NCBI GenBank assembly: GCA_050246315.1
Contig: JBFWWG010000026.1
Span: 1-19,714, forward strand
From: Nitrospiraceae bacterium
GTDB taxonomy: Bacteria > Nitrospirota > Nitrospiria > Nitrospirales > Nitrospiraceae
DNA length: 19,714 bases
Reading direction: 5' to 3'
Shown here: positions 216 through 16,536 of the stretch, piece by piece
Layout: the number at the start of each line of letters is the position of its first letter
Position numbering within the stretch: the stretch's first letter is position 1
Notes under the pieces: model-generated
The model's database searches: none
Seen by the model: the letters and a program-made list of their open reading frames with translations, nothing else
Told to the model about the DNA's origin: nothing
Made by a program: the position numbers and the translations under genes

Positions 216-217
216 CA

Positions 218-811: not shown

Positions 812-1246
812 ATGGAAATTCGCAGCAAGGTCTATCACTATCACACGGAGGTACGGTGGACGGAACAGAAAAAGGGGATCGCCTCCGCCTCCGGGAAGCC
901 CGACCTGGAGGTGGCCTCGCCGCCGGAGTTCAAGGGACACCAAGGGATCTGGTCTCCTGAGGATCTCTTCGTGGCCTCGGTCAGCATCTGTTTGATGACC
1001 ACGTTCCTAGCCTTTGCCGAACGGGCGGGGCTGGGATTCATCTCCTACCGTGGAGATGCAGAAGGGACCTTGGAGCTGGTCGATGGAAAATTTCAATTTA
1101 CGACCATCACGCTTCGCCCGCAGGTGACGCTGAAATCGGGCGAAGACCGAGCCAAGGCTCGGCAGATTCTCGACAAGGCCGAGGCCGCCTGCCTGATTTC
1201 CAATTCGATGAAGTGTCGGGTCATCCTGGCTCCTGTTCTTGAGTAA
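812..1246 (+). CDS. OsmC/Ohr family protein (thiol peroxidase-like)
   Basis: 144 aa; SPPEFKGHQGIWSPEDLFVASVSICLMTTF and AEAACLISNS carry the two conserved Cys; purine-rich RBS AAAGGGA. Confidence 0.92.
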   Translation: MEIRSKVYHYHTEVRWTEQKKGIASASGKPDLEVASPPEFKGHQGIWSPEDLFVASVSICLMTTFLAFAERAGLGFISYRGDAEGTLELVDGKFQFTTITLRPQVTLKSGEDRAKARQILDKAEAACLISNSMKCRVILAPVLE

Positions 1247-1256
1247 CGTAGGCATC

Positions 1257-1306
1257 TGTAGCATCTCGCCCCAGATGACAAGGTCTTGCTGGGGACTTTA
1301 GCCGCA
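1257..1306 (+). promoter_or_regulatory. Pair of 17-bp putative enhancer (bEBP) sites for the sigma54 promoter at 1391
   Basis: TGTAGCATCTCGCCCCA (1257) and TGGGGACTTTAGCCGCA (1290), 33 bp apart. Each is 12/17 identical to its counterpart at 11752/11785. Confidence 0.6.
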
Positions 1307-1340
1307 ACTGTGGCCGGTTATTTTCCGCTCACACCCTTAG

Positions 1341-1353
1341 AATCAACCACTTG
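1341..1353 (+). promoter_or_regulatory. IHF binding site
   Basis: AATCAACCACTTG matches WATCAANNNNTTR exactly and lies between the enhancer pair and the -24/-12 element. Confidence 0.6.
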
Positions 1354-1390
1354 GCGGTTGTCTCGGAACGAGATCACTCCGATGCGCAAT

Positions 1391-1406
1391 TGGCACAATC
1401 ATCGCA
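1391..1406 (+). promoter_or_regulatory. sigma54 -24/-12 promoter
   Basis: TGGCACAATCATCGCA: TGGCAC with GG-N10-GC spacing, upstream of the PepSY-cytochrome operon. Confidence 0.75.
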
Positions 1407-1598
1407 CTGAGCCTCTTGGATGAATGACCGGGGCGACTCATCTCGATGCAGTCCCACAATAAGCAGCCAGTTCAACCAAGGGTTCGCAGGAAGGGAGGTA
1501 AAGAGAATTACTCGCGGTGTTTCTCCGGCGGCATCAATGAAGAGGGGCTTTGCCCGATGAGCCGCCGGTTCAACCAACGGTCGGTATGGAGGGAAACC

Positions 1599-1961
1599 AT
1601 GAGACAGATTGCGATGGCGGCGGCAATGGTGGCGGGCCTGGTGTTGGCGATGGGCGGTACGGCGTTCGCGGACAAGAAAGGTGAGAAGGGAGGCAAGCAG
1701 AAGAGCAAGATCGAAATGGCGGAGACGGCCAAGGTCACGATCGATCAGGCGGTCAAGACGGCATCCGAGAAAGTCCCCGGTAAGGTCATCGAGGCCGAAC
1801 TTGAGAAGAAGCACGGCAAGACGGTCTGGGAAGTCGAGATCATGACGGACGACAAGATGATCAAGGAAATCCACATCGATGCGGATTCCGGCGAAGTGAT
1901 CGACGTCGAGGATAAAGGCAAGGGCAAGGGGAAAGGACACAAGGAAGAGGGCAAGCACTGA
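1599..1961 (+). CDS. Secreted PepSY-domain protein
   Basis: 120 aa from ATG 1599 (RBS GGAGGGA); signal peptide ending AFA; VTIDQAVKTA...GKVIEAELE...VWEVEI...EIHIDADSGEVI is a PepSY repeat; Lys/Gly-rich flanks. Confidence 0.88.
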   Translation: MRQIAMAAAMVAGLVLAMGGTAFADKKGEKGGKQKSKIEMAETAKVTIDQAVKTASEKVPGKVIEAELEKKHGKTVWEVEIMTDDKMIKEIHIDADSGEVIDVEDKGKGKGKGHKEEGKH

Positions 1962-1984: not shown

Positions 1985-2332
1985 ATGACGGTGGTGTCGT
2001 GGATGGTTGCCATCGTGCTGCTGATGTCTGGGTTGCCCGGATTGGCTCGAGCGGCCGGAACCGGCGATGCGGCAAAGGGCAAACTGCTGTTCGACAAGCA
2101 CTGTCTGGTCTGTCATGGGCCGCGAGGGAAAGGCGATGGACCGACCGGACGGGCATTGATTCCGCCGGCATCCGATTTCACGGCGGACGCAAGTCGGAAG
2201 AAAAGCTCGACCGAGCTGCGCCGGATCATCGAACAGGGCAGCCCACGCACGGCGATGCCCGCTTGGAAAGGTCAGTTGTCCGAGGAGCAACTGAGTGATG
2301 TCGCGGGCTATGTGGAAACGTTAAGAAAGTGA
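1985..2332 (+). CDS. Periplasmic monoheme class I cytochrome c
   Basis: Signal peptide (ARA), GDAAKGKLLFDKHCLVCHG, distal Met in TAMPAW; RBS AAGGAG. Confidence 0.92.
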   Translation: MTVVSWMVAIVLLMSGLPGLARAAGTGDAAKGKLLFDKHCLVCHGPRGKGDGPTGRALIPPASDFTADASRKKSSTELRRIIEQGSPRTAMPAWKGQLSEEQLSDVAGYVETLRK

Positions 2333-2341: not shown

Positions 2342-2812
2342 TTGCGGCGGCTCTGCGTGGCGGCCATTCTGTTATGGATTGCGGGAATCGGTCTGTTCGC
2401 CTGGTTGTTTGTCCGGGGCGTGACCGCATCGACCAGTGACGGAAGGACTGAAGTGCTCCTCGCTCCGGCCGAGCGGGACCAGATTCTGGCCGAGATGCGG
2501 CAGTTGCTTCAGGCGATCGACGGTATCCTCGATGGCATGGCGGAGCCGGATCGGACGGAGGGTGCACAGCGAATCGCCGCAGCCGCCCGTGCCGCAGGGA
2601 TGGGCATGGCGGCAGACGTGAATCCCATCCTGATGGCGAAGCTTCCGCTTCCGTTCAAGCAGATGGGCATGTCGGTTCATCGAGACTTCGACGGGATTGC
2701 GGCACGAGCTGCACAGGGAGCTCCAGGTGACGCGATTGTACGGGACCTTGCCGGTATCACGAAGCGCTGCACGACGTGCCATGGACTCTATCGGCTGACT
2801 GCAGCGAGGTAG
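2342..2812 (+). CDS. Membrane-anchored class II (c'-like, helical bundle) cytochrome c
   Basis: TTG start after GAGGTG; N-terminal hydrophobic helix; amphipathic helices; single C-terminal CTTCH. Confidence 0.82.
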   Translation: MRRLCVAAILLWIAGIGLFAWLFVRGVTASTSDGRTEVLLAPAERDQILAEMRQLLQAIDGILDGMAEPDRTEGAQRIAAAARAAGMGMAADVNPILMAKLPLPFKQMGMSVHRDFDGIAARAAQGAPGDAIVRDLAGITKRCTTCHGLYRLTAAR

Positions 2813-2869: not shown

Positions 2870-3005
2870 ACGTGAACCCTTTCCCGGGCGCGACACTCAA
2901 ACGAATCAGCAACCACGGGCTGGGGCTCGACGGATGTGATGTCGCGGGACCGATCGTGTTCCCCGCCAGGCGAATCGAAGGTTGGTGCAGAAGGGGGGTA
3001 TTGCC

Positions 3006-3221
3006 ATGGCCTGTAACGTCGGAGGAATCGAGAGACCGATTCGAATGGTATTGGGGCTGGCGTTCATCGCGCTTGGTGCGCTTGCGGATCTCCCCGCGGC
3101 GGGAATGTGGACCAGTTATGCGGTCGGAGCTATCGCGTTGATCACAGGGGCGGTCGGCTTCTGCCCCGCATGGAGCCTGTTAGGGATCAACACCTGCCCC
3201 GCGCAACCCAAAACCAAATGA
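3006..3221 (+). CDS. DUF2892 (YgaP-like) small membrane protein
   Basis: 71 aa; CNVGGIERPIRMVLG...GFCPAWSLLGINTC is the family signature; two TM helices; RBS AAGGGGG. Confidence 0.9.
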   Translation: MACNVGGIERPIRMVLGLAFIALGALADLPAAGMWTSYAVGAIALITGAVGFCPAWSLLGINTCPAQPKTK

Positions 3222-3624
3222 CGAGTCGTGGGGGTTGAGGGCATCGCCTGCCTGCCCGGCTCCTTCGCTGAGCCCGAGGGGGCATTGACCCCGATACGAA
3301 ATGCGACGCAGCGAGCTGATGCCCGTGCAGAGTTCTGCGTCCGGTCTCGATGGTGAGATCTGACATCGCAGCCAGGTGCGCTCGCCAGCGGTGGTCGGAC
3401 GCTCGTCGTCCCTGCCGACACAATCGTCACGGTCGAGTTAGGATACCAAAAGGGTGAACGGGTCGATCGTTAAAGTCTGGACCTGCCCCGGCATCTAGTT
3501 TTGGCTGACGGCGGCTCTCATGTCTCTATCGTGATCGATCCGGCTCTGGCAGGGGAGGAGCGTCCGTTCCAGCCATGCTCGTCCACACTCTCATATGGAA
3601 AAGTCACGGCATGATCCTGCAACC

Positions 3625-4044
3625 TCCAGCGTTCGGAGTCGGTTACTGGCGGAGAGATGGGCGAATTGACGAGCGGATTCATCAAGGACGCCGATCGAAT
3701 CACTTGGAGACCTCCGGGTCGTTCGTGACTTCCTTTCTCGGCCCGAGGAACTGGTCTTTCAAGACGAAGGCGTCAAAGGCACCATTGCGTTGCGCAAGAG
3801 AATCGTCGAGTTCTTCAAGGGTGCGGCGCGAGAACGGCACGCGCAGTACTGGATATCATTTCAAAACCTCATGACCGCGCTTTGACAAGCTCAGCACGAA
3901 GGGAGGAATATCCTGTTTCCATGAACAGATCCGTTCGCCCTGAGCCGGTCGAAGCCTGTGGTGAGTGCATCGAATCGGGTGAACGGAGGGCTTGAAATGA
4001 CTTCTAGTACATGATCCAGCGGCTGTTCGATGCCTGGCGCATCA
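3625..4044 (+). pseudogene. Decayed BrnT-family toxin C-terminus plus CopG/BrnA-type antitoxin, interrupted by a MITE
   Basis: FGVGYWRRDGRIDE resembles the toxin end (IFGAGYWRKG...). Then ACG (lost ATG) SGFIKDAD, a frameshift, and ESLGDLRVVRDFLSRPEELVFQDEGVKGTIALRKRIVEFFKGAARERHAQY. After the insertion it resumes as MIQRLFDA at 4011. Family assignment is from recalled consensus, not a search. Confidence 0.7.
3846..4010. mobile_element. 165-bp non-autonomous MITE/REP-like element
   Basis: 25-bp terminal inverted repeats (3846-3870, 3986-4010; 20/25 match). Internal TTTGACAAGCTCAGCACGAAGGG / CCGTTCGCCCTGAGCCGGTCGAAG palindromic pair. AGTAC is present at both junctions. It splits an otherwise colinear antitoxin reading frame. 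Confidence 0.7.
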
Positions 4045-4394
4045 TTCGTGATCTCTCACCTCAGGCTCAACTCGGGCGCGCCTAAAACTGAGGCGCTCCG
4101 ATTCGTGCTTAGTTCGTCGGAGAGGTCAGGTTGGACCGAGAGTGGCCCTTCCGGTATTGTCGCGTTCCTGCCTCGGTGTCCCCCGGTTCATCATGCGGAG
4201 GGTTCCGCTACCCGAGGGTCAGCTTCACGATCTCACGAGCGATAGGTGGGCCTGAAGCGGCGATCGGACGAAGGGTTGAAGATTTTTGTGAATCCTTTCT
4301 GCGCTGAAGGACTCTCATCTCGAAGCGGACGGTCTCGTTCCACAGCCGTTCGCGACCGCACCATCACTTTACTCATAATCTTAAGGAGGCCGTC

Positions 4395-4916
4395 ATGAGA
4401 GCAGGTACGCAGGGACTGGCATGGGTCGGGGCGTTCGCAGTGCTGGCATGGGGAGGGCTGGCCATGCCGGCCATGGGAGCCGAACCTTCGTCGCCGGCCG
4501 CAGGCTATGATATTCATGTGCAGGCGCCGCATATGATGCCGGACGGTACGCCGGGCGGCCCCTACCACCATTATTGCAAAGGAATCTCCGACCAGATTCT
4601 CCAATGTCTCCTCTTCGAATCAACCGATCCCAAGGCCAAACTGGTCGCCGTCGAATACTTTGTGGCCAAGGATCTGACCCGCAAGCTTTCCCCGATCCAA
4701 TGGCATCGGTACTTCCATGACCACAAGGTCGAAATTGCCACCGGCCGCGTGCAGGTGTTGGATATGCCGGAGGATCAAGCCAAGGCCGTGGCCGAAGCGG
4801 CCTCGAAGACCGACGGCGTCATCTACCATCTCTGGCAACAGGGGCAGGAGTTTCCCGATGGAACGGTGACATTCCCCCAGTCGTTGGGACATAAGTTCCC
4901 CGGACATGCTGAATAA
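4395..4916 (+). CDS. Secreted DUF1264 / OBAP-family protein
   Basis: 173 aa; signal peptide; HHYCK...LQCLLFESTDPKAKLVAVEYFV...HDHKVEI...YHLWQ; RBS AAGGAGG. Confidence 0.85.
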   Translation: MRAGTQGLAWVGAFAVLAWGGLAMPAMGAEPSSPAAGYDIHVQAPHMMPDGTPGGPYHHYCKGISDQILQCLLFESTDPKAKLVAVEYFVAKDLTRKLSPIQWHRYFHDHKVEIATGRVQVLDMPEDQAKAVAEAASKTDGVIYHLWQQGQEFPDGTVTFPQSLGHKFPGHAE

Positions 4917-5005: not shown

Positions 5006-5032
5006 CCCATGTGGTCCTGCGAGCAAAACAGC

Positions 5033-5506
5033 ATGAGGCATCGAAGACGCGCTTCCATTTGGAGAGTTCCGGTTCTGCTCTGCTGCTCCCTGGCGGGAGT
5101 CGGATTCGGACTGTCGTCGGCCTGGCCTGCCGACGAGGTAGTGCTCAGGCCTCGCGTTCCTCTCGATCAGATCGAGGAAGCCCGGACCTGGGTCAATCCC
5201 CTGGCTGCCACACCGGACAACCTCGATAAGGGGAAGGCTCTCTTTCACGGCAAGGCCTTCTGCGTCACCTGTCACGGTAGGGACGGCACAGGACTGGGCG
5301 ACATCCCGGGACTGCGCGGGAAGCTGCCGAGAAACTTTACGGACCAGGCCTGGCAGAGAGCCAGAACCGACGGTGAACTGTTCTGGATTCTCAGGAATGG
5401 AAGTCCAGGCACCGATATGGCACCATTCATCCCACTCGTGCTGACGGAAGAGGAGGCCTGGCAGGTACTCCTCTATGTCCGTTCATTCGGACGCCCCTCA
5501 GACTGA
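5033..5506 (+). CDS. Periplasmic monoheme cytochrome c
   Basis: Signal peptide, GKAFCVTCHG, PRNF, GELFWILRNGSPGTDM (distal Met). Start is ATG 5033 or 5009. Confidence 0.9.
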   Translation: MRHRRRASIWRVPVLLCCSLAGVGFGLSSAWPADEVVLRPRVPLDQIEEARTWVNPLAATPDNLDKGKALFHGKAFCVTCHGRDGTGLGDIPGLRGKLPRNFTDQAWQRARTDGELFWILRNGSPGTDMAPFIPLVLTEEEAWQVLLYVRSFGRPSD

Positions 5507-5590
5507 CCTGAGCCGCATCACCTGGACGCGAGGCAACGTTTGCGCAGCGTTTCAGGCAAGGCCCGGACCTCACTTGAGGGGAGGCTGGCC

Positions 5591-5908
5591 ATGCAGTCCG
5601 AGCAATATGGCGCAACACGCTCGTCGAAAGCGTTTGCACCAATGCCCGCCGGTGTACTCAGCACAGGCACCTTGCCGGAGGCCGAAGTCATCTGGTTTTC
5701 TGCGGCGGACACGTATGAAATCTGGCTGACCGATCAGACCGACATCGGGAATGCGAATGACGGATATTTCTACTCTTATGAGGGCGCACACCTTGCGCGC
5801 CATCCCGGTTCGGCCAAGCCCGCTGCGACCTACGACCTCTTCGGAGAGATCAACGCCTGCTGCGAGGAAGCGACAAAGACACTGCTTCGCCGAGCTCCGA
5901 GGTTTTGA
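5591..5908 (+). CDS. Hypothetical protein
   Basis: 105 aa; strong RBS GAGGGAGG before ATG 5591; protein-like composition; no recognised motif. Confidence 0.6.
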   Translation: MQSEQYGATRSSKAFAPMPAGVLSTGTLPEAEVIWFSAADTYEIWLTDQTDIGNANDGYFYSYEGAHLARHPGSAKPAATYDLFGEINACCEEATKTLLRRAPRF

Positions 5909-6138
5909 CAGGGCTGCTGCCTCACATTCCCACATTCCTCCTGAGCGCTTCCTCTGGGGATGGGAGGTTGGAGGTAAGCTCCCTGTCCGTCGTCCTTCGA
6001 TCGTCGTCTGTGGCGCTGCAGGGGCCGGCGGGTACCAGGGCGGCTCAAGCGAAGTTTGGGGTGGCGGCCGGTTTTATTGAAGTGAATCGCGCCGGAACCG
6101 CTTGCCCGTCTCTCCTTTCCCGTCGCGACCGTCCGGTC

Positions 6139-7164
6139 ATGAGGTGCGCATGGACAAGGACGGTCCGGTGGGGCGTCATTGGTCGTCTGATCCTGCTGTC
6201 CCTCGCTGTTGACAACGCCTGGCCCGCATTGATCCGGGCCGAGTGGTCGCTGAACGCCGGGCAAAAGGTCAGTTATACGACCGACGCGTTTCAATTCTCC
6301 TCTTCCCGGCGTCTCGCCCTCAGCGAAGATCCGACACAACCCACCATCGTGCCGCTGGAGAAACCGCAAGACGTGATCTGGGAGCCGATGGTGGAGGCGG
6401 TCCGGACTTCCTCGAATCGGCTGGGCGCCAACGAGTTGTCATTCAAAGCGAGAGGCTTCATTTTTACGGATAAACCGATTTTCAATAATGGAGAATACCG
6501 TATCCAAGATCTCCAGCAGCTCAACGATTCGACGTCGCTCCTGCTCCGCTACCGCTACGTGCCGAACCTGTTCTTAGGTCCCAACTACGAACGCCGTTCC
6601 GGCGAACGAACGATTCAAGAAGAGCGGGTCACCTCCCACCGGTGGCGAATGGAATTGGAGCATCGGCTGACCGAGCGATGGACCGCGACCGCAATCGGCC
6701 GCTTCGGGCTGCGCTACTATAACGAGGCGTTCGCCGAGCGAGACACGTTTTTCTATGCGGTCGGGCCGCAGGTGAGTTACCAGGTCGTCCCATGGACAAC
6801 CCTGACCCTGGGGTATCTCTATGAGCGAGGCTTGGCGGACGGGCGCAACGAGCCGCAATTCCAGGACGACGTCTCCTATTACCTGAACATGCTTTCGGCC
6901 GGGGCGGAGATCCGCCTCCTCCCCAAGGTCACGCTGAGCCTCATGTATCTGTATCTCCGCAAGGACTTCACCAGCGGTATTGCAGGGGACCCTCATGTCG
7001 GCCGTATCGATCAGACTCACCAGGGTTGGATCGAACTGAGCTATCAACTCACCATCCGAGCGACGCTCACGGCCGGTTTCCAACGGACCCAGCGGACCTC
7101 GACCAATATCGACAGGAACTTCCAAGATTCGATTTTTTCGGTTGGCGTGCTGTATCAATTCTAG
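6139..7164 (+). CDS. Outer-membrane beta-barrel protein
   Basis: About 341 aa from ATG 6139; signal peptide; many alternating amphipathic strands rich in Tyr/Arg; C-terminal SVGVLYQF beta-signal. The ORF-track start at 5905 is probably too long. Confidence 0.85.
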   Translation: MRCAWTRTVRWGVIGRLILLSLAVDNAWPALIRAEWSLNAGQKVSYTTDAFQFSSSRRLALSEDPTQPTIVPLEKPQDVIWEPMVEAVRTSSNRLGANELSFKARGFIFTDKPIFNNGEYRIQDLQQLNDSTSLLLRYRYVPNLFLGPNYERRSGERTIQEERVTSHRWRMELEHRLTERWTATAIGRFGLRYYNEAFAERDTFFYAVGPQVSYQVVPWTTLTLGYLYERGLADGRNEPQFQDDVSYYLNMLSAGAEIRLLPKVTLSLMYLYLRKDFTSGIAGDPHVGRIDQTHQGWIELSYQLTIRATLTAGFQRTQRTSTNIDRNFQDSIFSVGVLYQF

Positions 7165-7470: not shown

Positions 7471-7881
7471 ATGAATCTCACGGTCAGCTATCGCGGAGGC
7501 ACGAAGTTCCACATTCACAGCAATGCACACATGGTCGTGACCGACCAACCGCGCGATGACGGCGGCACCGATGCCGGAATGAGCCCGGTGGAGCTGTTTA
7601 TCGGATCGCTCGCCAGTTGCGTCGCCTATTTTGTTGCGCGGTATTGCGCCCGTCACAATATCGAGTCCGAAGGGTTGGTGTTGGACGTGGAGTATGAGAT
7701 GGCGGAGCAGCCGCATCGAGTCGGAAACGTAGCCGTGAGAATCCATGTGCCGACTTCCATGAATCCTTCCCAGGAAGAGAGGCTCTTACGGGTGGCCCAG
7801 GCCTGTACCGTGCACCAATCTCTGGTCATTCCGCCTACGACGAGTATCAGTCTGGTCGCAAAGGATCGCACGGCGGCGTAA
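7471..7881 (+). CDS. OsmC family protein (YhfA-like subgroup)
   Basis: 136 aa from ATG 7471 (RBS GGAGG); TDQPRDDGGTDAGMSPVELFIGSLASC and ACTVHQSL carry the two Cys. Confidence 0.9.
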   Translation: MNLTVSYRGGTKFHIHSNAHMVVTDQPRDDGGTDAGMSPVELFIGSLASCVAYFVARYCARHNIESEGLVLDVEYEMAEQPHRVGNVAVRIHVPTSMNPSQEERLLRVAQACTVHQSLVIPPTTSISLVAKDRTAA

Positions 7882-7946
7882 AGCGGCCTGGTCGTCGACA
7901 GACACAATAGATGAGCAGCCGAATCCACAAAGGGAGGACGAGCGTG

Positions 7947-9380
7947 ATGGATGATGTATCGAGCGGAAGGCGGCGGATGCACCTTTGGCTGATCATGGGG
8001 GCGGTTTTGGTCGTCACCTTGCTGAGCGTCGCGACCAGGTCCTTGATGGCGGACGATCGGGCACGGATGGAAACGATGCTCAAGACCACCTGCTCCGGCT
8101 GCCATCGCCTGGACGGCGAGCCGGTCTCCCGACTCGAGAAGAAAGCTCCCGATCTCATCGGGATCGGCAGCAAATTCAAACATGAGTGGCTTGTCGGGTG
8201 GCTGGCGGGGAAAGAGCCGCCGGTCTACACGTCCGGCTACCGATGGGATCAACCGGACGTCCGCCAACCGCATATGGCGTTGCCTCAGGCTGAAGCGGAA
8301 GCGATGGCGGCGTATCTTGAGACCCACATGACCGATCCCAAGATCAAGCCCGGCGCCATCGACATGGCCACGTTCAGCAAACAGGAGGCCTCATTCGGAG
8401 AGGCCATTTTCAAAGAGCACGCCTGTATCGGCTGCCATCAGATCCAAGAGGGGGGAAAGACGGTCGGTGGCCCGCAAAGTACGTCGTTGGTGAACGCGGG
8501 AAGACGGCTCAAGGCCGACTGGATTTATCGGTTTAATTCCAATCCTCCGGACTATGTGCCGCACAGCGGCGAATTTGTCGGAGATGTCAGCGAACTGGGG
8601 TTGCGGTATGTGACCGGCTTCATCGCCACCAGGGGGTGGGATGATTTCCGATATTACGAACCGTGGACAAGTGAACCGTTCAGTCGCCCGAGCGTGGATC
8701 GCGGGAGGGTGATTTACAAGGAGTATTGTGCCCAATGTCACGGAGCCTCCGGAAAGGGCGACGGGGCGGCCGCGCCGGGATTGAATCCCAAGCCGGCGAT
8801 TCATGCCAATATGGCGTTCGACAAGCTGCCGATGGACTATCTTTACAATGTGATTTATTACGGCGGTCGCAGCGTGGGGAAAGCCTCGACGATGCCCTAC
8901 TGGGGATTGACGATCGGACAGCAGGGCGTGGCCGATGTCATGGCCTACCTGCGCGGGACATTCAAGGGCGGGGAAGCGGTCGCTCAAGCGTCGGCAGGCG
9001 GTGACGCCTTTGGCGTCTGTCCTCAGCCGCGCAGCACACAGCAGGCGCCGGAGCAGTTCCTCACAATGGCCAACCCGCTGCCGGCCTCGCCACAGACGAT
9101 CATGGCCGGGAAGCGACTGTACCAGGAAACCGCGAAGCCGATCGCCTGCATGAATTGCCACGGAGCAAAAGGGGATGGAGCGGGCGCCATGGGCCTGGCC
9201 TTCCAGCCGCCTCCGCGTAACTTTACCTGTGGCCAAACGATGAAGAACCTGCCCGACGGACAGTTGTTCTGGGTGATCAAGAACGGGTCGCCCGGGACCG
9301 GCATGATGGCCTTCGGCAACCTGTCTGATGAGGAAGTGTGGCAGTTGATTCACTACTTTCGTTCGCTGGCCAAGCCTTGA
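7947..9380 (+). CDS. Tetraheme cytochrome c built from four class I domains
   Basis: N-terminal hydrophobic anchor or signal; widely spaced CSGCH, CIGCH, CAQCH, CMNCH; RBS AGGGAGGA at 7931-7938 favours GTG 7944 or ATG 7947. Confidence 0.9.
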   Translation: MDDVSSGRRRMHLWLIMGAVLVVTLLSVATRSLMADDRARMETMLKTTCSGCHRLDGEPVSRLEKKAPDLIGIGSKFKHEWLVGWLAGKEPPVYTSGYRWDQPDVRQPHMALPQAEAEAMAAYLETHMTDPKIKPGAIDMATFSKQEASFGEAIFKEHACIGCHQIQEGGKTVGGPQSTSLVNAGRRLKADWIYRFNSNPPDYVPHSGEFVGDVSELGLRYVTGFIATRGWDDFRYYEPWTSEPFSRPSVDRGRVIYKEYCAQCHGASGKGDGAAAPGLNPKPAIHANMAFDKLPMDYLYNVIYYGGRSVGKASTMPYWGLTIGQQGVADVMAYLRGTFKGGEAVAQASAGGDAFGVCPQPRSTQQAPEQFLTMANPLPASPQTIMAGKRLYQETAKPIACMNCHGAKGDGAGAMGLAFQPPPRNFTCGQTMKNLPDGQLFWVIKNGSPGTGMMAFGNLSDEEVWQLIHYFRSLAKP

Positions 9381-9400: not shown

Positions 9401-10609
9401 ATGTCACGGCACTCCATTTCCCGCCGGCACATCTTGCAACTGGCCGCTTCCGCCGCTTTGGTGGCGGCCGTACGGCCGCAGCATCTGCTCGACCAAGCCT
9501 GGGCGGACGTGGATTCGACTGAGGACGCCGAGGCTCCGTCCGGCCGAGAGCTGCTGCGCACGAAAGTGAGTCGGCCGTACGATGCGGAGACCGATATTGC
9601 TGCCTTCCGGGAGTGGCTCACGCCCACAAAATCCTTCTTCGTCCGCAGCCATTTCGGGCCTCCACCTGAGGAAGCGGTCGATCCGGCAGGCTGGCGCTTG
9701 ACGGTGACCGGTCTCGTCGATCGGCCGCTGACCTTGAGTCTCGCCGATTTGAAACAGTTCGAAGAAGTCACGATCACGGCGGTGCTGCAATGCAGCGGGA
9801 ACGGGCGGGTCTTCCATCGACCACGGGCTCCCGGAGTGCAGTGGGAAAGAGGGGCGGTTGGAAACGCACAGTGGACCGGCGTGCGCCTTACGGATGTGCT
9901 GCGACGGGCGGGAGTTCAACCAACGCGCGCTCGGCATGTCCAGTTGGAGGGCGCCGACCGGCCTGTGTCCGACAAGACGCCGCAATTCATCCGCAGCATT
10001 CCGTTGGCGAAGGCATTGCATCCGGACACGTTGCTTGTGTACCGCATGAACGGGGAGCCGTTGCCTCTGTTGCACGGAGGTCCGCTGCGGTTGATCGCCC
10101 CGGGCTGGATGGCCGATGCCTGTACCAAGTGGCTCACGACCGTCACGCTTCAAGAGCGAGAGGCGGAAGGCTACTATATGCAAACCGCCTATCGGCACCC
10201 GATGAAGGCGGTGGATCCAGGCGCCACGGTGCCGCGCGAGCAGATGCGCCCGATTGAAGCCATGGTCGTGAAGTCCCTGATCGTCAGTCCGTCAGAAGGA
10301 GCGACGATTTCGACTGACTCGGTTCTCGTGCAGGGGGTGGCATGGACCGGCGAAGGGCGTATCACGCGAGTTGAGGTTTCGACAGACGGGGGTGCAAGTT
10401 GGTCACCGGCCCGCTTGCTGGGAGAGGATGTACCCTATGCTTGGCGATCCTGGGACTATCGATGGGAGCGAAAACCCGGCGAGAGTGGCGTGATTCTGTC
10501 TCGCGCAACCGATAGCCAAGGCCATGTGCAGCCGGAACGGTCGCCATGGAATCCCGGAGGATTTTTGTGGAACGGATGGGACCGTGTCACCGTGTCAATC
10601 GTCGGTTAG
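9401..10609 (+). CDS. sorA: Tat-exported sulfite oxidase family molybdoenzyme (SorA/SoxC-like sulfite dehydrogenase subunit)
   Basis: 402 aa from ATG 9401; SRRHIL twin-Arg signal ending AWA; FFVRSH, LQCSGNGR (Mo-ligand Cys), AVGNAQWTGV, MNGEPLPLLHGGPLRLIAPGW, C-terminal dimerisation domain (RVEVSTDGG...WNPGGFLWN). Family is secure; symbol and substrate are less so. Confidence 0.88.
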   Translation: MSRHSISRRHILQLAASAALVAAVRPQHLLDQAWADVDSTEDAEAPSGRELLRTKVSRPYDAETDIAAFREWLTPTKSFFVRSHFGPPPEEAVDPAGWRLTVTGLVDRPLTLSLADLKQFEEVTITAVLQCSGNGRVFHRPRAPGVQWERGAVGNAQWTGVRLTDVLRRAGVQPTRARHVQLEGADRPVSDKTPQFIRSIPLAKALHPDTLLVYRMNGEPLPLLHGGPLRLIAPGWMADACTKWLTTVTLQEREAEGYYMQTAYRHPMKAVDPGATVPREQMRPIEAMVVKSLIVSPSEGATISTDSVLVQGVAWTGEGRITRVEVSTDGGASWSPARLLGEDVPYAWRSWDYRWERKPGESGVILSRATDSQGHVQPERSPWNPGGFLWNGWDRVTVSIVG

Positions 10610-10626
10610 CACGGGCGAGACGCGGG

Positions 10627-11250
10627 GTGTCCCTGCGGACGACCCTGCCCATGAGTGCCGTGTGCATGGTATCCATGCTCGCGTTGTATTTCGGACTCTC
10701 GGCCGGGGGTGCGGAAGAGCCGTTCGTCACGACGGCGGGGACGCGCCAGGCCGAGGGACTCCTCATCGCTCGCTGTGCCGTCTGTCACAGCACGGATCTG
10801 GTCGTGCAGCAGCGACTCGCCCGCCCGGCTTGGGAAGCGACCGTCGCCAAGATGCGGCATTGGGGGGCGGACCTTTCGGATGAAGAGGCGGGACTGCTCG
10901 TGGACTATCTTGCAGGCCGATACCATGCAACGGCGCCCGATCACCTGACGGACGAGCAGCACGAGGCAACTCCCTTTCGCTTCGACGATGAGAGTCAGGT
11001 GATGGCTGTACATTCGCTGGGCAACGCCAAGCGAGGGGCAGGCCTGTTCTCGGTCAATTGTCAGGCCTGTCACGGCGCCAAAGCCGTCGGCGGCGCCGGT
11101 CCCAAGCTTGCCGGCAATCCCATCGTGACCGAGGACGAGCGGTTTTGGGACACAGTGGTGCATGGGCGCGGAGCGATGCCGGCTTGGGGCACGGCCCTCA
11201 AGTCTCAGGAGATCGCGGATATCCAGGCCTGGCTCCGCTCGTTGGAGTGA
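10627..11250 (+). CDS. Diheme cytochrome c: SorB-like domain fused to a c6/c553-like domain
   Basis: Signal peptide; CAVCHSTD...WEATVAKM...LVDYLAGRY (SorB-like); CQACHG...GPKL...GRGAMPAW. Start is GTG 10627 or ATG 10651. Confidence 0.85.
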   Translation: MSLRTTLPMSAVCMVSMLALYFGLSAGGAEEPFVTTAGTRQAEGLLIARCAVCHSTDLVVQQRLARPAWEATVAKMRHWGADLSDEEAGLLVDYLAGRYHATAPDHLTDEQHEATPFRFDDESQVMAVHSLGNAKRGAGLFSVNCQACHGAKAVGGAGPKLAGNPIVTEDERFWDTVVHGRGAMPAWGTALKSQEIADIQAWLRSLE

Positions 11251-11288: not shown

Positions 11289-11648
11289 ATGGCCACGTTC
11301 ATTATTTCCGGCAGCCGAGGCACCGACGATCCCACCATGGCGACCTTGCCGTTTATGGCGGCCAAAACCGCGAAGGAACAGGGGCACGATGTGATCCTGT
11401 GGCTCTGGAACGAAGCGGTCACGCTCGGACGAAAGGGCACGGCCGATCATGTGACGGGGGTGAATCTGACGCCGTTAAAGGATCTACTGGGCGCGATTCA
11501 AGCGGCCAACGTGCCAATCTGGGTCTGCGGGGCCTGTGCCGTGGCCCGGCAGATCGGGCAGGGAGATTTGGCAGCGGGCGCCACGATCAAGGGCATGCCG
11601 GACTATATCAAGGCCGTCGCCGAGCGTGACCGAATCGTCGCCTTCTGA
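11289..11648 (+). CDS. Cytoplasmic DsrE family protein (sulfur carrier or peroxiredoxin-like)
   Basis: 119 aa from ATG 11289; GTDDPTMATLPF...EAVTL...IWVCGACAVAR with CxxC; no signal peptide. Confidence 0.9.
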   Translation: MATFIISGSRGTDDPTMATLPFMAAKTAKEQGHDVILWLWNEAVTLGRKGTADHVTGVNLTPLKDLLGAIQAANVPIWVCGACAVARQIGQGDLAAGATIKGMPDYIKAVAERDRIVAF

Positions 11649-11885: not shown

Positions 11886-11901
11886 TGGCACGATCTTGGC
11901 A
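11886..11901 (+). promoter_or_regulatory. sigma54 -24/-12 promoter
   Basis: TGGCACGATCTTGGCA: one mismatch to TGGCACG-N4-TTGCW. Confidence 0.75.
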
Positions 11902-12084: not shown

Positions 12085-12516
12085 ATGTCGACAGAAATAC
12101 GGCCAGGTGTACCGGTTGGAGGATTCAAGACGGTTGGACAGATTCATGCTACGAATGATCTGGTCATTAATCACAAACAGAATGCACTCGCCGTCGCGGT
12201 GGAACTGTTGACGGACCACATTCCCGGTGCGCCGGTGGTGGACGAGAAACATGAGTTCATCGGCTTCATCAGCGAGTTCGATATTCTGCGGGCGCTTGAG
12301 GCGGGCAAGGATTTGGGCAAGCTCACGGCCGAGGACGTCATGGTGAAGGATCGTGTCGCCGTGACGGACGATACAACGGTTGAGCAGGCGGTAAAGATCA
12401 TGGAAGAAAAGCGCCTACTCAGCCTGCCGGTGAAAAAGAACGGCAAGGTCGCCTATTCGGTGACCAGGCACGACCTCCTGAGGGCCTGGATCGGCCTCGG
12501 CGTGTCGTTTGAGTAA
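12085..12516 (+). CDS. Stand-alone CBS-pair protein
   Basis: 143 aa; HIPGAPVVDEKHEFIGFISEFDIL and RLLSLPVKKNGKVAYSVTRHDLL; RBS AAGGAGG. Confidence 0.92.
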   Translation: MSTEIRPGVPVGGFKTVGQIHATNDLVINHKQNALAVAVELLTDHIPGAPVVDEKHEFIGFISEFDILRALEAGKDLGKLTAEDVMVKDRVAVTDDTTVEQAVKIMEEKRLLSLPVKKNGKVAYSVTRHDLLRAWIGLGVSFE

Positions 12517-12611
12517 GTGGAATCGACGTTTGGAGGCTCACGGAGCGTGTCACGCTGCAGATCAGGTCATCGCGGGCCTTGTATCGAGTGAATGAGAAGA
12601 GGAGTTGGCGT

Positions 12612-13193
12612 ATGAAGAAGGTCCTGTGGCTTGCGATTGGCCTGGCCGGTTGCTTGGCTTTGCCGCTCTGGGCGGCGGAACAGCATGAGAGGCAGGGGAT
12701 GCGAGGTATGGAGAGCATGATGCAGCCGCGCGTGCCGGCGGACAAGCTCGCGGAGGCTCGCGGTATCACGAGCCCGCTTCCCGATTCGGCCGAGGTAGTC
12801 GAGAGGGGGAAGGCCTTGTATGAAGGCAAGGGCACCTGCTTCACTTGTCACGGACTCACCGGGCAGGGAGACGGATCGGCTGGGGCGACGCTCAATCCAC
12901 CTCCGCGCAATTTCCATCATCGCGGGTTTTGGCGGCACCGCAGCGAGGGGGAAATCTTCTGGGTCATTAAGAACGGCTCGCCCGGCACCGGCATGATTCC
13001 ATTTGCCGGCGCGCTCACAGATGAGGAGATCTGGAGCATCATCCAGTATGAACGAACCTTCTCTGGAGGCCATGGACCACGGCGCAGCATGGATCCGCCG
13101 GAGGGGATGGGTCACAGGGGATCACGCGGCGGCATGGGAATGGGGGCTGAAGGGGGAACCGCAGCGCCGGGAGGAGAATGTTGTCCACCGTGA
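12612..13193 (+). CDS. Monoheme cytochrome c with Met/Gly/His-rich extensions
   Basis: ATG 12612 (RBS AGGAG); signal peptide; CFTCHG, PPPRNF, GEIFWVIKNGSPGTGM; paralog of 5033-5506; ends GGECCPP. Confidence 0.9.
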   Translation: MKKVLWLAIGLAGCLALPLWAAEQHERQGMRGMESMMQPRVPADKLAEARGITSPLPDSAEVVERGKALYEGKGTCFTCHGLTGQGDGSAGATLNPPPRNFHHRGFWRHRSEGEIFWVIKNGSPGTGMIPFAGALTDEEIWSIIQYERTFSGGHGPRRSMDPPEGMGHRGSRGGMGMGAEGGTAAPGGECCPP

Positions 13194-13239
13194 TGCTCAA
13201 CGAGCTGCCATTGGTGCGCTTTCAGGAAGGAGTGCCTTC

Positions 13240-13656
13240 ATGAAGAAGCACAGCAGGGTCGTTCTTGGGGTTCTGCTTCTGGTCTCGACTGGGTCGTGGT
13301 TGCTGGCACAAGAAATACGGGGCAATCCGAAACATGGGCAGGCCGTGTACGAGAAACATTGTCTGCGCTGTCACGGAGCTTCTGGAGACGGCCTTGGGCC
13401 GGACGCGACCGATCTGATCGTACTCCCGGCGAATTTCCAGTCGGCCAAATCCAGAGCCAAGACCGATTTCGAGCTGCTCATCGCCATTTCCAACGGTGTG
13501 CTGTTCAGTCCGATGCATGGATGGAGGGGGCGATTGAACGAAACGGAGATGATGGATGTGATCGCGTACATCCGGATGCTCGCGCCGTTTCTGGCCGTTT
13601 CCCAGACGGCTCCGGTCGGTGCCGATGCGCTGATTGTTCAGGACGAGCGAGCGTAG
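13240..13656 (+). CDS. Periplasmic monoheme class I cytochrome c
   Basis: ATG 13240 (RBS AAGGAG); GNPKHGQAVYEKHCLRCHG...SPMHGWRGRL; paralog of 1985-2332. Confidence 0.9.
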   Translation: MKKHSRVVLGVLLLVSTGSWLLAQEIRGNPKHGQAVYEKHCLRCHGASGDGLGPDATDLIVLPANFQSAKSRAKTDFELLIAISNGVLFSPMHGWRGRLNETEMMDVIAYIRMLAPFLAVSQTAPVGADALIVQDERA

Positions 13657-14215
13657 ACGGTCTTTATATCGTCGGTTCCCTTGTCGGTTGAGGAGATCGT
13701 GCTCACCTGGTTGCCGTTTGCAGGAGCGCCTTCTCCCTCGAGTCGGATGAACAGAGGATCACTGTACCTTGTTACGGTCATGATGGCTCGCGACAGGGCC
13801 TGACCGGCATCGATCTCAGCCATGGCATGCTGCTGCGGTTGGTTCCTGCCGTAATGGGTCTGACGCGAAGAGGTTCGGCTCTGAAGAGGGTTCGTCGCGT
13901 TGCACCCGTTGCATCGTGAAGAGCAATGGGCATCCGGCAGTCGCCAGGCGTTGGACCCATCGCATGGGACGAGCAATGGGTACCCCCACGATGGACGTCC
14001 CGGAAGATCGATTGCGGAGCAATCGGAGGGTGGCGGGGGAGATGACGGTCATGGGGACGATCTGCAATGGCTTCTGAGATCGTTCGTGATCGCTGCTGAA
14101 CCGGCTTTAGCGGATACTCAACAGGTTACTCGTCAGCCTGCCGGCCCGGCTCATTCATGAAGCGTCGTGGCGAAACTGCGGGCGAGGAAGGACATCGCTC
14201 CTGCTGCGAAGGACA

Positions 14216-14635
14216 ATGATTGCGATGAGAGGAAGGAGCCGGTCGGTAGGGGTGGTGCTGTGCCTGAGGCTTGCGTTCGGCGTCGGCCTTGTCGGCATGA
14301 GCGTCACCATCGGCGCGATTGGCATGTCGGGCTTGCCGGCGCTGGCTGTCGGCGGACCAGCCAGCGATGTGCAGAAGGGTGGCGAAGATGCGGGAAGGCA
14401 AGACTCGTCCGAGCCGCCATTCAACCCGCACGGCAACTTGGTGTTCCGCGCGACCGGTGCCACGTCCTGTCGCGAGTGTCACGTCGCCGGCCGATCGACA
14501 TCTGGGGCATGGCCTGTGCTGGACAACGATCGAGTGCGATCGCTGGTGGCCAAAGGGAAGGGCGCGCACGCAGGGAGATTTGCCGACTGTTTTCGATGCC
14601 ATCCCGGTGGCAGACTGCCAAGCGAGCAGCCGTGA
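14216..14635 (+). CDS. Small diheme cytochrome c
   Basis: Hydrophobic N-terminus; CRECH and CFRCH with candidate distal His in NPHG and GAH; homologous to the C-half of 15976-16536. Start is uncertain (14216 or 14225). Confidence 0.82.
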   Translation: MIAMRGRSRSVGVVLCLRLAFGVGLVGMSVTIGAIGMSGLPALAVGGPASDVQKGGEDAGRQDSSEPPFNPHGNLVFRATGATSCRECHVAGRSTSGAWPVLDNDRVRSLVAKGKGAHAGRFADCFRCHPGGRLPSEQP

Positions 14636-14641
14636 ACGAGG

Positions 14642-15220
14642 ATGACGACGAGAGGCGAGCAGAGAAGGGATTGTACAGGCACCGGAGCGACGACCGCGTA
14701 TCTGAACCGGATGTCCCCGGGACAGTCCCGATCTGTGCTCCTTGCCGCGTGGCTGGTCTTCGGGGTCGGCGGCTGTGGCGACGGACTCAAGGACGTCAGG
14801 CAGTACGAGCGAGGCGAATCAGCTCAAACCCTGCCGGTGATCCCCGATGGCCGGCAGGCCATCCGCCTCTCGTCCGCCGCGGAAATCGAGCATCAGGGAG
14901 CGATGGTTCAGCACCTGCAGACGATGGAAGGCATCGTCGAGGCGCTGGCGGCTGGGGATTTCCTGATGGCCCAGATGCGAGCGGAAGCCCATCCAAGTTT
15001 CTTCGCGCGTCGCATGGCCCTCGTCCGACAACGAATGGAGACCTACCCGCCGGGCTTTCAAGACCTGGCTGCCGCGCATCAGGCGGCGGCCGACGAGTTG
15101 GCCCGCGCCATTCCCTCCCGCGATCTCGTTCAGATTCTTCCTAAGCTGAGCGCGCTGTTGAAGGCCTGCTCGGCCTGTCATCTGACGTTTCGCTTGGACC
15201 GAAGCGACCGCGGAGGGTGA
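14642..15220 (+). CDS. Class II (c'-like) cytochrome c, probable lipoprotein
   Basis: LLAAWLVFGVGGC lipobox-like; helical body; single C-terminal CSACH. The true start may be ATG 14711. Confidence 0.8.
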   Translation: MTTRGEQRRDCTGTGATTAYLNRMSPGQSRSVLLAAWLVFGVGGCGDGLKDVRQYERGESAQTLPVIPDGRQAIRLSSAAEIEHQGAMVQHLQTMEGIVEALAAGDFLMAQMRAEAHPSFFARRMALVRQRMETYPPGFQDLAAAHQAAADELARAIPSRDLVQILPKLSALLKACSACHLTFRLDRSDRGG

Positions 15221-15375
15221 CTCCATGACAATGGCGCTCACGCTCGCGGGGGGTGATCCCATCGGAAGGCGCAATGGAAACGAGGGGACCGCAAGGCTTC
15301 ACCGATAGCCTTTGCTCACGAAATCTGTGGGGCCGCGATGCGGAAGGCCGCCGATCGTTCCGATGAAGGGACCGC

Positions 15376-15969
15376 ATGAATTCGCTGAGGTCGCGGGCCA
15401 GGCTGGTGGCGCTGGCTGCGACCTTCGTCGTTGGAGCGGCCTTCGGCGTTGAATTGCTGCTCAGCCTCGGCGAGGAAGTGGAGTTCGGCCACAGCCGCCG
15501 TGGCCATGTCCTCGGTTGGGTTGGGTTGCTGATTCTTCTGCTGGTCTTCGTCTATCCCCTGAAAAAACGATACGCTCCGGAGGCCCCGAGGCGGGGCTGG
15601 ATTCAACCTTGGTTTCGGGTCCATCTGATTGCCGGCATTCTAGGGCCTGTCCTGATCCTGATTCATGCCGGGGCGCACTTTCACGCGCTCGTGCCGGTCC
15701 TTGCGTTGGTTGCGCTGGCTCTGGTGACCCTGAGCGGCGTTGTCGGCCAAACGCTACATTCACTGGCGGTGCGGCAGATGAATCAACAATGGCACGAGCT
15801 TCAGAAGCAGGACCTGGCAGAAGCTGAAATCCAGGAACGATTGACGGAACGGACGGCGCAAGAGGAGGCCTTTCGATTTTGGCAGCTCGTCCATGCGCCC
15901 GTGACCATTCCGTTTGTCGCACTGACGCTCCTGCACATCATCGGAGCGCTCTTTTTCGGCGGATGGTGA
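15376..15969 (+). CDS. Integral membrane di-heme b-type (ferric-reductase-like) protein
   Basis: 197 aa; several TM helices; two His pairs at i/i+14 (VHLIAGILGPVLILIH; VHAPVTIPFVALTLLH). Confidence 0.78.
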   Translation: MNSLRSRARLVALAATFVVGAAFGVELLLSLGEEVEFGHSRRGHVLGWVGLLILLLVFVYPLKKRYAPEAPRRGWIQPWFRVHLIAGILGPVLILIHAGAHFHALVPVLALVALALVTLSGVVGQTLHSLAVRQMNQQWHELQKQDLAEAEIQERLTERTAQEEAFRFWQLVHAPVTIPFVALTLLHIIGALFFGGW

Positions 15970-15975
15970 CGTCCG

Positions 15976-16536
15976 ATGCGGTATGTGCCGCTGCCGGCCT
16001 CGGTGGTGCCGATTGTTTTCATCGCGACCCTGTTGTTGCTGGTCTGGCTCGGATGGGAGTCCTATCGCGACCCGGAAACCTGGTGGGCGCCCGGCGATCT
16101 GAGCCGGGCTCATGCGGACGTCGGATCGTGTCTCCAATGCCACCAACCATTCAAAGGCGTCACGAGCAGAAACTGTGTCGCCTGTCACGGTGAGACACAG
16201 TTTGCCAAGACCGCATCACAGGCTGTTGCTGCGGCTCATACAGAGGCCCTGCATGCAAAGAGGAGCTGCCTAACTTGTCACACAGAGCACCGGGGCGTAT
16301 CGGCTTCCATCACGATCGGTGCGTTGCAGAATCCTCATGGCGAGTTCGTCTTTCGCGCCACCGGTGCGCGGACCTGCGGCACCTGCCATGTCGTTTCGCC
16401 GGAAGGCGGCCCGCCGAGCATGCGTGACAATCCGACGGTCCGGCGGCTCTTGGATCAAGGCAAGGGTGCGCATCGGCGGGGTCGGATGGCCGATTGCCTC
16501 AGGTGTCATGCAGGAGGCGTGACGGAAGGCGGATAG
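15976..16536 (+). CDS. Membrane-anchored pentaheme cytochrome c (class III-like)
   Basis: 186 aa; N-terminal TM helix; CLQCH, CVACH, CLTCH, CGTCH, CLRCH; extra His (RAHA, TEHRG, NPHG, GAH) available for bis-His ligation. Confidence 0.9.
   Translation: MRYVPLPASVVPIVFIATLLLLVWLGWESYRDPETWWAPGDLSRAHADVGSCLQCHQPFKGVTSRNCVACHGETQFAKTASQAVAAAHTEALHAKRSCLTCHTEHRGVSASITIGALQNPHGEFVFRATGARTCGTCHVVSPEGGPPSMRDNPTVRRLLDQGKGAHRRGRMADCLRCHAGGVTEGG

Follow-up and report, generated by a model that had tools for sequence, protein, structure and literature searches.

A non-Sox route of sulfide oxidation has been described in heterotrophs and comprises SQR, persulfide dioxygenase, a sulfurtransferase, TauE, SorAB and TsdA (PMC12345210). 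In Nitrospira papers, SorAB, SQR and complex III have each already been annotated individually: a second complex III of Nitrospira moscoviensis (CIII_2) was described as a Rieske protein, a fused cytochrome b/c and a diheme c subunit (PMC6606698), sorAB was reported as characteristic of canonical Nitrospira and absent from the comammox (complete ammonia oxidiser) genomes of that study (bioRxiv 10.1101/138586), sorAB was found in two comammox metagenome-assembled genomes (MAGs) and transcribed in one of them (PMC7078480), and a 2025 survey gave SorAB as largely restricted to lineage IV and SQR as common in lineages I, II and VI (PMC12342949). The use of reduced sulfur by nitrite oxidisers is stated there and elsewhere as an open question (PMC8115632, PMC10579370, PMC12342949, PMC10839748). 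Here, a 19,714-nucleotide stretch of a Nitrospiraceae genome (hereafter the window) was analysed, which is the entire contig C26 of a 4.39-Mb genome in 30 contigs and carries a Tat-exported molybdoenzyme of the sulfite oxidase family (9401..10609, + strand) among genes of c-type cytochromes. The window is a partly deleted copy of a cluster common to many Nitrospira-family nitrite oxidisers, and it probably represents the periplasmic sulfite:cytochrome c oxidoreductase branch of an island for the oxidation or detoxification of reduced sulfur, used in sulfidic low-oxygen spells. The host is supported as a nitrite-oxidiser-type Nitrospiraceae without ammonia monooxygenase (AMO), which was not found by a profile search of the contigs of the genome; a nitrifier-like host had been expected from the window itself.

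The molybdoenzyme carries both Pfam domains of the sulfite oxidase family, PF03404 included. Its NCBIfam scores lie below all named cut-offs (317.7 against 600 bits for SorA NF052245, 243 against 570 for SorT NF052247, 228 against 420 for SoxC and 38.5 against 207 for MsrP NF003767), and the SorA cut-off was passed in 0 of 61 class genomes. The best solved relative was Starkeya SorA (2BLF, 233 bits), followed by SorT (169) and SoxC (145). A twin arginine of the Tat signal is found at positions 8-9 and is kept in 84 of 86 members of the family alignment, which includes a few duplicates and paralogs. R82, H84 and Y264 align with R55, H57 and Y236 of SorA, whose positions are fixed by mutant structure entries, and C131 and R136 align with the residues that we take to be numbered C104 and R109 in the Starkeya enzyme. 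The equivalents of R55, H57, C104, R109 and Y236 are kept in 86, 85, 86, 85 and 84 of the 86 members, respectively, while the paralogs of the genome itself and MsrP are without the equivalents of R55 or R109.

A quick tree (56 rows, SH-aLRT supports, no SorT member) placed the Nitrospiraceae enzymes in their own 13-row clade (SH-aLRT 99) within a 37-row group (95) that includes true SorA; SoxC and MsrP fell apart from this clade. The clade lies outside the 19-row clade that holds the true SorA of Cupriavidus (L190, 700 bits) and family f11 (518-528 bits). The description of the enzyme as SorA-like in the original prediction agrees with the scores, the residues and the tree, which do not point to an MsrP-like enzyme, and the phylogeny proposed there groups the enzyme with SorA and leaves it outside the true SorA clade. 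Three other identities were rejected, namely MsrP (by score and by the presence of the PF03404 dimerisation domain), SoxC as part of a Sox system (by score, by the separate SoxC clade and by SoxB, whose best match in the genome reached 79 bits against a cut-off of 550 in a profile search) and SorT (by score). In the order-level family f4 (L021, L022, L024 and L025), SorA-clade enzymes have Arg in place of His57 and Met in place of Arg109, and another substrate is therefore suggested for them.

The gene directly downstream (10546..11250, true start near 10627) encodes a diheme cytochrome in which a SorB-like domain (NF052246, 51.8 bits, cut-off 93) is followed by a second class I domain. Modeling of the complex of the SorA-like enzyme with the SorB domain gave a score of 0.85, and the best of three controls scored 0.00; the mark for this score is reached by 51 of 78 solved pairs and 2 of 108 mismatched pairs. 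The runs agreed in 100% of contacts and the pLDDT of the partner was at least 83. The diheme cytochrome is predicted to bind the SorA-like enzyme, although a SorAB-type complex has already been solved and the model therefore shows likeness only. Judged by anatomy, the two proteins appear to resemble SorAB, and the enzyme itself is not classed as SorA.

To describe the surroundings of the enzyme, synteny was analysed over about 10 kb in the best 80 of 110 loci, 74 of the Nitrospira type and 6 others. A fixed core was observed, which consists of an OsmC-like protein, the SorA-like enzyme, the diheme SorB-like cytochrome, a tetraheme cytochrome and a DsrE protein. The SorB-like gene was present in 73 of the 74 Nitrospira-type loci, OsmC-like protein 2 (7471..7881) in 70, the tetraheme cytochrome (7911..9380), a likely electron acceptor downstream of SorB, in 65, TsdA in 53 and DsrE (11289..11648) in 50. 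Of the 43 loci that extend 9 kb to each side, the second OsmC was found in 43, SorB in 42, the tetraheme cytochrome in 41, DsrE in 38 and TsdA in 36. OsmC-like protein 2, which has three invariant cysteines (74/74) and lacks an export signal, shows the tightest linkage among the genes without an assigned role. The DsrE protein is of the cytoplasmic YchN type, contains a CxxC motif and is 81-100% identical across the family. Membership of a reverse Dsr pathway (DsrEFH, DsrAB) was rejected, as this protein is encoded by a single YchN-like gene and not in a dsrEFH trio and DsrA stays under its cut-off in the genome.

Other families were less frequent in the 74 loci, namely the YgaP-like protein (42), PPK2 (33), the first cytochrome c' (30), OsmC-like protein 1 (27), QcrB (24), Rieske protein and hemerythrin (22 each), CBS protein (18), SOD (16), small diheme cytochrome (14), YeeE (12), DUF1264 protein (11), His-rich membrane protein (9), pentaheme cytochrome (8), outer-membrane barrel (6) and SQR (4). 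None of these families was present in the 6 non-Nitrospira loci. The co-occurrence of the genes across Nitrospiraceae proposed in the original prediction was thus borne out by the synteny check of these 74 loci and 15 wider regions, but the parts that it had joined to them, a 19-heme network as a fixed unit, a porin and a quinone module of the membrane protein and pentaheme cytochrome, turned out to be accessory, as the counts for the diheme, pentaheme, membrane protein and barrel genes indicate.

Across 151 genomes sampled evenly from the family, an ortholog of the enzyme was found in 87 (89 matches minus 2 weak ones), TsdA in 90, DsrE in 102 and type I SQR in 63 (68 minus 5 distant homologs); many of the surveyed genomes were fragmented. 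Among the 36 AMO-positive genomes the enzyme was found in 4, TsdA in 30, SQR in 7 and DsrE in 28 (hand count), so the sulfite branch is kept in 83 of 115 canonical nitrite oxidisers versus 4 of 36 comammox genomes. TsdA and the enzyme occur together in 58 genomes, and in all 56 same-contig pairs TsdA precedes the enzyme gene on the same strand, at a median distance of 630 bp. SQR and the enzyme occur together in 46 genomes, with SQR upstream on the same strand in 38 of 38 same-contig pairs, 3.8-68 kb away.

In fifteen genomes, chosen by hand for their long contigs, a single region extends over as much as ~80 kb, and the window is its middle part. The region starts with two-component genes, a large multicopper protein, SQR (12/15), TauE (5/15) and a YgaP-like/RND trio (12/15), and continues with a Mla transporter, OsmC-like protein 1, cytochromes and a Rieske protein with a fused cytochrome b/c (10/15). 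Then follow TsdA (9/15), a YeeE pair (3/15), the core, PPK2, thioredoxin, POR and hemerythrin; USP (10/15), HSP20 and an acyl-CoA ligase/GNAT fusion are located on the opposite strand. The SQR of the relatives scored 514 bits to the type I SQR of Acidithiobacillus, with the catalytic Cys kept in 12/12. Genes for reactive sulfur and genes for survival at low oxygen occur together in the wide region; of these themes sulfur has the best support, given that the relatives place TsdA, SQR, YeeE and TauE in the same region. The sulfur theme suggested from the window was retained on this basis, although type I SQR, TsdA, YeeE, TauE and complex III of the relatives had been missed.

Several further genes were noted in the wide regions. 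A multicopper protein with FGE-sulfatase-domain and barrel genes begins the region in 9 of the 15 genomes; one such protein of 1644 aa with weak similarity to MnxG is encoded at L142:7891-12825 (-), with homologs that include G000:C1:653617-661543 in the host genome. A CoA-disulfide reductase-rhodanese fusion directly follows sqr at L138:14201-15922 (-) in the AMO-positive genome G141, in one of the 15 regions. An FNR-like regulator with N-terminal cysteines is located a few genes upstream of sqr at L123:11733-12443 (-) in G075.

The diheme protein that precedes the core in the relatives has been published as QcrC. Under that reading the cluster would be a second complex III with extra cytochromes, and sorAB an unrelated neighbour; it is consistent with the diheme c subunit of CIII_2 (PMC6606698), with Table S6 of PMC12342949, where K19713 matches are filed as 'QcrC, complex III' and the TsdA row is empty, and with the location of complex III inside the island in 10 of the 15 wide regions. 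However, QcrB already has a fused cytochrome c, and the diheme protein scored 183 bits to Allochromatium TsdA and retains the marks of TsdA, namely the catalytic Cys96, a His/Met second heme and an Arg pocket; C96, R92, R99, H164 and M209 are kept in 54/54 members and R82 in 51. It also accompanies SorA (53/74 loci) more than QcrB (24/74) and is present without QcrB in the genomes G012 and G141. The protein published as QcrC thus looks like TsdA, and we regard a complex III with unrelated sorAB as quite improbable. The N. moscoviensis counterpart, NITMOv2_3959, is tentatively assigned to the TsdA family by its position, length and KEGG number, and the N. defluvii counterpart lies at L071:8472-9386. 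Independent erosion was observed elsewhere in the family, with a split TsdA in L133 (G145), loss of the downstream half in L126 (G131) and loss of OsmC-sorAB in the comammox genome G141 (L135 region).

The survival genes of the wide region could point to a general low-oxygen or redox-stress island, in which cytochromes, OsmC, DsrE and CBS proteins form a survival regulon and the molybdoenzyme has a substrate other than sulfite, for example in S- or N-oxide reduction or in the repair of oxidised periplasmic thiols. This is consistent with USP, HSP20, PPK2, acetate kinase, phosphoketolase and POR in the region, with hemerythrin, SOD, a protoglobin cyclase and the FNR-like regulator, and with an enzyme that scores under all named family cut-offs. 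Cytochromes c' could bind nitric oxide, and the two in the window were counted on the same side. Against it, the MsrP score is far below its cut-off, the substrate residues of SorA are kept, and the nearest fixed neighbours are TsdA, YeeE and DsrE, not stress genes. In addition, FNR, CRP and sigma-54 boxes were not enriched in the islands compared with the genome, and a single FNR-like site was found in the window, at position 16542. A stress island with another substrate is therefore considered unlikely, and it overlaps with the sulfur reading because sulfide and low oxygen come together.

The copy in the window has been eroded. Compared with the same-genus genome G001, it is without SQR, SOD, Rieske and QcrB, which occupy 4.0 kb there and 0.9 kb here, and also without hemerythrin and the gene of a potassium channel. 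Broken genes or remnants were found at four places: a second DsrE/F-like gene (155..583, exported type in relatives; family in 13/74 loci) with a premature stop and homology continuing to 652, a frameshifted C-terminus of qcrB (4113-4240), a truncated putative beta-propeller (5540..5908) and a remnant of an uncharacterised gene that G001 has in full (15269-15370). The qcrB remnant indicates loss here and not gain in G001 for this gene. With the three further deletions relative to G001 and repeats in two gaps, these losses could mean that the copy is decaying and no longer functional. Nevertheless, every core gene is intact, with 79-93% identity to G001, a second species (L031/G002) has the identical layout from 7046 to 16744 at 94% DNA identity, and RNA-library contigs of 4/4 studies cover the core genes, with pieces of at least 99% in three runs. 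Such contigs are weak evidence, as they show presence and not level and DNA may be present; depth differences along the window were left unused since X9 represents a related strain, with long contigs that extend over mscS outside the island as well. On balance, a non-functional copy seems very improbable.

The rest of the region can be traced in the host genome: C1 ends with its front part and C19 begins with the USP block, and the C1-C26-C19 joins are inferred because both ends of C26 are repeats. An island-type Rieske and fused cytochrome b/c pair (59% and 76% identical to G001) is located away from the island at G000:C18:53267-55321, so the function of the second complex III may survive the deletion. 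The link of the family to the quinone pool would be this type of complex III together with SQR, both deleted in the window, and not the window cytochromes to which the original prediction had given that role. TsdA was not matched in G001 or, in a profile search, in the host genome, where a SoxA/TsdA domain was likewise not found. A cytoplasmic-type nitrate reductase cluster, said to be rare in Nitrospirales, was noted on C2 (L157:7144-11641 and upstream), with narHJI matches, a 1233-aa upstream open reading frame (ORF) that is NarG by position, and an SQR-like gene.

With SorAB and neither SQR nor TsdA in this genome, the pair might also serve sulfur nutrition or the clearing of sulfite from organosulfonates or cysteine, unrelated to environmental sulfide; assimilation or detoxification roles are raised in PMC12342949 and PMC3578206. 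Oxidation of sulfite to sulfate runs counter to assimilation, however, and no gene for sulfonate transport or desulfonation was found among the island families scanned, which makes such a role hardly credible.

We favour the sulfite branch of a sulfur island. In the proposed scheme, periplasmic sulfite would be oxidised to sulfate at the Mo center of the SorAB-like pair, and electrons would pass to the SorB-like heme, the fused heme and the tetraheme or 579-like cytochromes, ending at a terminal oxidase or running in reverse through complex III. In intact copies, SQR would oxidise sulfide to sulfane sulfur at the quinone pool, the DsrE, YgaP-like, YeeE and TauE proteins could carry or export sulfur species, TsdA would convert thiosulfate to tetrathionate, and the complex III of the island would link quinone and cytochrome c; the scheme assigns no gene to the step from sulfane sulfur to sulfite. 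This genome would retain the sulfite branch only. The purpose may be, first, detoxification and redox poise when conditions turn sulfidic and low in oxygen, and any energy gained would be a by-product. The potentials are about -0.52 V for sulfite, about +0.2 V for thiosulfate/tetrathionate and about +0.43 V for nitrite/nitrate; sulfite and thiosulfate are thus better donors than nitrite, and detoxification could also yield energy.

A number of points weigh against this interpretation. The activity of the SorAB-like pair is deduced from sequence and model likeness, the enzyme scores 318 bits against a cut-off of 600 and lies outside the SorA clade, and many relatives that were never assayed share the same active-site residues. 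The counts of loci and genomes are not independent because the genomes are kin, and SQR is often tens of kb away and therefore not in one operon with the enzyme. The wider region includes the non-sulfur genes listed above (USP, HSP20, PPK2, acetate kinase, phosphoketolase, POR, hemerythrin and the FNR-like gene), and the scan of the island genes revealed no persulfide dioxygenase. In the host genome, YeeE, TauE and SOD were not matched with the queries used, and the only strong SQR-like gene, the one next to nar on C2, is without the catalytic Cys and without four of the five cysteines kept in 12/12 island SQRs, so that, with TsdA also unmatched, no internal source of sulfite is evident. The expression of the N. 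moscoviensis island was recorded in a nitrite-fed reactor with no induction test (PMC6606698), PMC10579370 states that sorAB of nitrite oxidisers has not been tied to any phenotype or activity, and physiological proof is lacking according to PMC8115632, PMC10579370, PMC10839748 and PMC3578206. With regard to a persulfide dioxygenase, 13 reading frames of the host genome carry a metallo-beta-lactamase-like motif.

All genes named in the original prediction lie on the + strand where it had placed them, and its inventory was confirmed, including 19 CxxCH motifs in 10 c-cytochrome genes (in order 1, 1, 1, 4, 2, 1, 1, 2, 1 and 5). Residue shuffles yield 0.04 such motifs, and among the 20-kb bins of the genome the window has the highest density (19 versus a mean of 0.83; runner-up bin 11). 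Among the 25 ORFs of the window that were scanned, no sox, dsrAB, sqr or hdr match was found, as had been stated; the SoxB and DsrA models stay under cut-off genome-wide, and the hdr search covered the window ORFs. The second DsrE-like gene, the PepSY gene, the propeller and the remnants at 4113-4240 and 15269-15370 had been missed.

The remaining genes of the window, all on the + strand, begin with OsmC-like protein 1 (812..1246, PF02566; two invariant Cys in 29/29), an exported PepSY-domain protein (1599..1961, PF03413), a monoheme class I cytochrome c with CxxCH (1985..2332), a cytochrome c'-like monoheme protein with an N-terminal anchor (2342..2812, weak PF01322) and the YgaP-like two-helix membrane protein (2982..3221, DUF2892, PF11127). 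The gap at 3222..4394, where G001 has SQR, Cu/Zn SOD, Rieske and QcrB, contains the qcrB remnant and a multicopy repeat (3852-4011). It is followed by an exported, accessory DUF1264 protein (4395..4916, PF06884) and a monoheme cytochrome 579-like protein (5009..5506; NF033864, 93.7 bits, under the cut-off of 280). The propeller fragment corresponds to the N-terminal quarter of a 412-aa protein that is whole in G001 and G012. Its homolog at L112:7236-8474 (-) has no Pfam family, and Atlas clusters auto-named methanethiol oxidase matched it with a score of 0.99; as an automatic label without Pfam support, this name was rejected for the fragment and kept as a lead only. A 412-aa propeller-like gene is found near SQR or cytochromes in 3 of the 15 wide regions. 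The accessory outer-membrane beta-barrel (5905..7164, true start probably near 6130) matched BBP2_2 (PF10082) barely over the cut-off (25.1 versus 23.7) and has a 39% paralog on C20; nothing links it to sulfur.

Downstream of the core, a tandem CBS-domain protein (12085..12516), a second monoheme cytochrome 579-like protein (12579..13193; NF033864, 117 bits, under cut-off) and a monoheme class I cytochrome c with CxxCH (13231..13656) precede a gap (13657..14215) with a multicopy repeat (13882-14141), where G001 has the hemerythrin gene. An apparent TrkA-channel remnant at 11103-11261 was rejected as an artefact of an over-long ORF that disappeared with the corrected start, the gene being simply absent. 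Then come a small accessory diheme cytochrome of no named family (14216..14635), a second cytochrome c'-like protein (14642..15220), the accessory His-rich membrane protein, possibly a cytochrome b (15376..15969), and an accessory membrane-anchored pentaheme cytochrome c (15976..16536). For the membrane protein, announced earlier as a di-heme b protein, five hydrophobic segments were found and 8 of its 10 His were invariant in 11/11 homologs (9 if an end gap is ignored); binding of heme b is inferred, since the match to the cytochrome b561 Pfam family is sub-threshold (21.6 bits, cut-off 30.1), and an Atlas search for this protein returned hypothetical clusters only.

Short multicopy repeats were located at 2-220, 1465-1607, 3852-4011, 13882-14141 and 19555-19713, with up to 32, 44, 16, 20 and 10 overlapping matches in the genome, respectively; they are located at either end of the contig and at two sites of deletion. 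Two remnants (3697-3903 and 16797-16907) resemble a BrnA-like antitoxin gene of G001. An MscS channel (17369-19201, -) and a response-regulator fragment (19284-19714) lie beyond the island and had no BLASTN match to the G001 region.

The published record contains parts of this island. According to the supplements of PMC6606698, NITMOv2_3979-3952 hold sqr (4.2 times the median expression), Rieske (5.9), qcrB (1.6), the diheme gene (837 bp; 1.3), two YeeE genes (1.2 and 0.9), OsmC (2.4), sorA (3.2), sorB (1.6), multiheme c (1.1) and DsrE (1.4); the words 'sulfite' and 'sulfide' are absent from its main text. Table S6 of PMC12342949 lists genes on the contigs of two loci analysed here under K00387, sulfite oxidase. 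TsdA was reported in 143 Nitrospirota MAGs from sediment, with neither Nitrospiraceae nor the cluster named in the accessible text (PMC12345210), and a tsdA region is known in Nitrotoga (PMC9239080). From PMC10203281, PMC7522533, PMC12903955 and PMC11033732 no description of this cluster was obtained. No account of the clustering was found in the freely searchable literature, a scope that leaves aside subscription papers and the main supplementary PDF and Table S5 of PMC12342949. The word 'undescribed' in the original prediction is nevertheless too strong, because Nitrospira papers already carry annotations for sorAB, for sqr and for this complex III; overall, its interpretation was partly supported. 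The island is real, conserved, sulfur-themed and built from known enzyme types, and this copy is reduced.

It is tentatively possible that most Nitrospiraceae, including comammox, are facultative sulfur oxidisers with an overlooked respiratory module for reduced sulfur, made up of SQR, a TsdA under the wrong annotation, a SorAB-like enzyme peculiar to the family and a complex III of its own. Such a module would allow energy conservation and supply low-potential electrons from sulfide, thiosulfate and sulfite, and comammox would mostly have dropped the sulfite branch and kept TsdA and DsrE. Two annotations are corrected: what is filed as 'QcrC' in the second complex III resembles TsdA, and the SorAB-like enzyme occurs in more than half of the sampled Nitrospiraceae genomes (87/151), versus the near-restriction to lineage IV given by the survey. 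The gene set is defined in two cultured strains and is open to a cheap enzyme test (TsdA, SorAB). If true, the interpretation matters for how well Nitrospira tolerates sulfide in wastewater reactors, whose operators aim either to suppress nitrite oxidisers or to keep them, and for the coupling of N and S in soils and aquifers.

A comparison with the known systems indicated that the SorAB of Starkeya novella (PDB 2BLF; NF052245/NF052246) is alike in the Tat-exported Mo subunit with five residue equivalents, the cytochrome gene directly downstream and the predicted heterodimer. In contrast to it, the window enzyme belongs to a separate clade and misses the SorA cut-off, its SorB-like domain is fused to a second heme domain, and it has fixed OsmC, tetraheme and DsrE neighbours. 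The TsdA of Allochromatium vinosum (PDB 4WQ7 series) shares the His/Cys and His/Met hemes and the Arg pocket with the diheme protein of the relatives, which has Asn at the position of Lys208 in 53/54 members and is found neither in the window nor in the host genome. The heterotroph non-Sox pathway is similar to intact copies with SQR, TauE, YeeE, TsdA and the SorAB-like pair and without Sox or Dsr; unlike that pathway, the island shows no persulfide dioxygenase in the region, this copy is without SQR and TsdA, and the genes are gathered in one region with their own complex III in a nitrite-oxidising autotroph. A further counterpart is NITMOv2_3979-3944 of N. moscoviensis, with sqr, CIII_2, a YeeE pair, OsmC, putative sorAB, multiheme c and DsrE in the usual order of the family, annotated gene by gene and with the diheme protein called a complex III subunit (PMC6606698). 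Compared with that copy, the window is reduced and its tetraheme gene precedes sorA.

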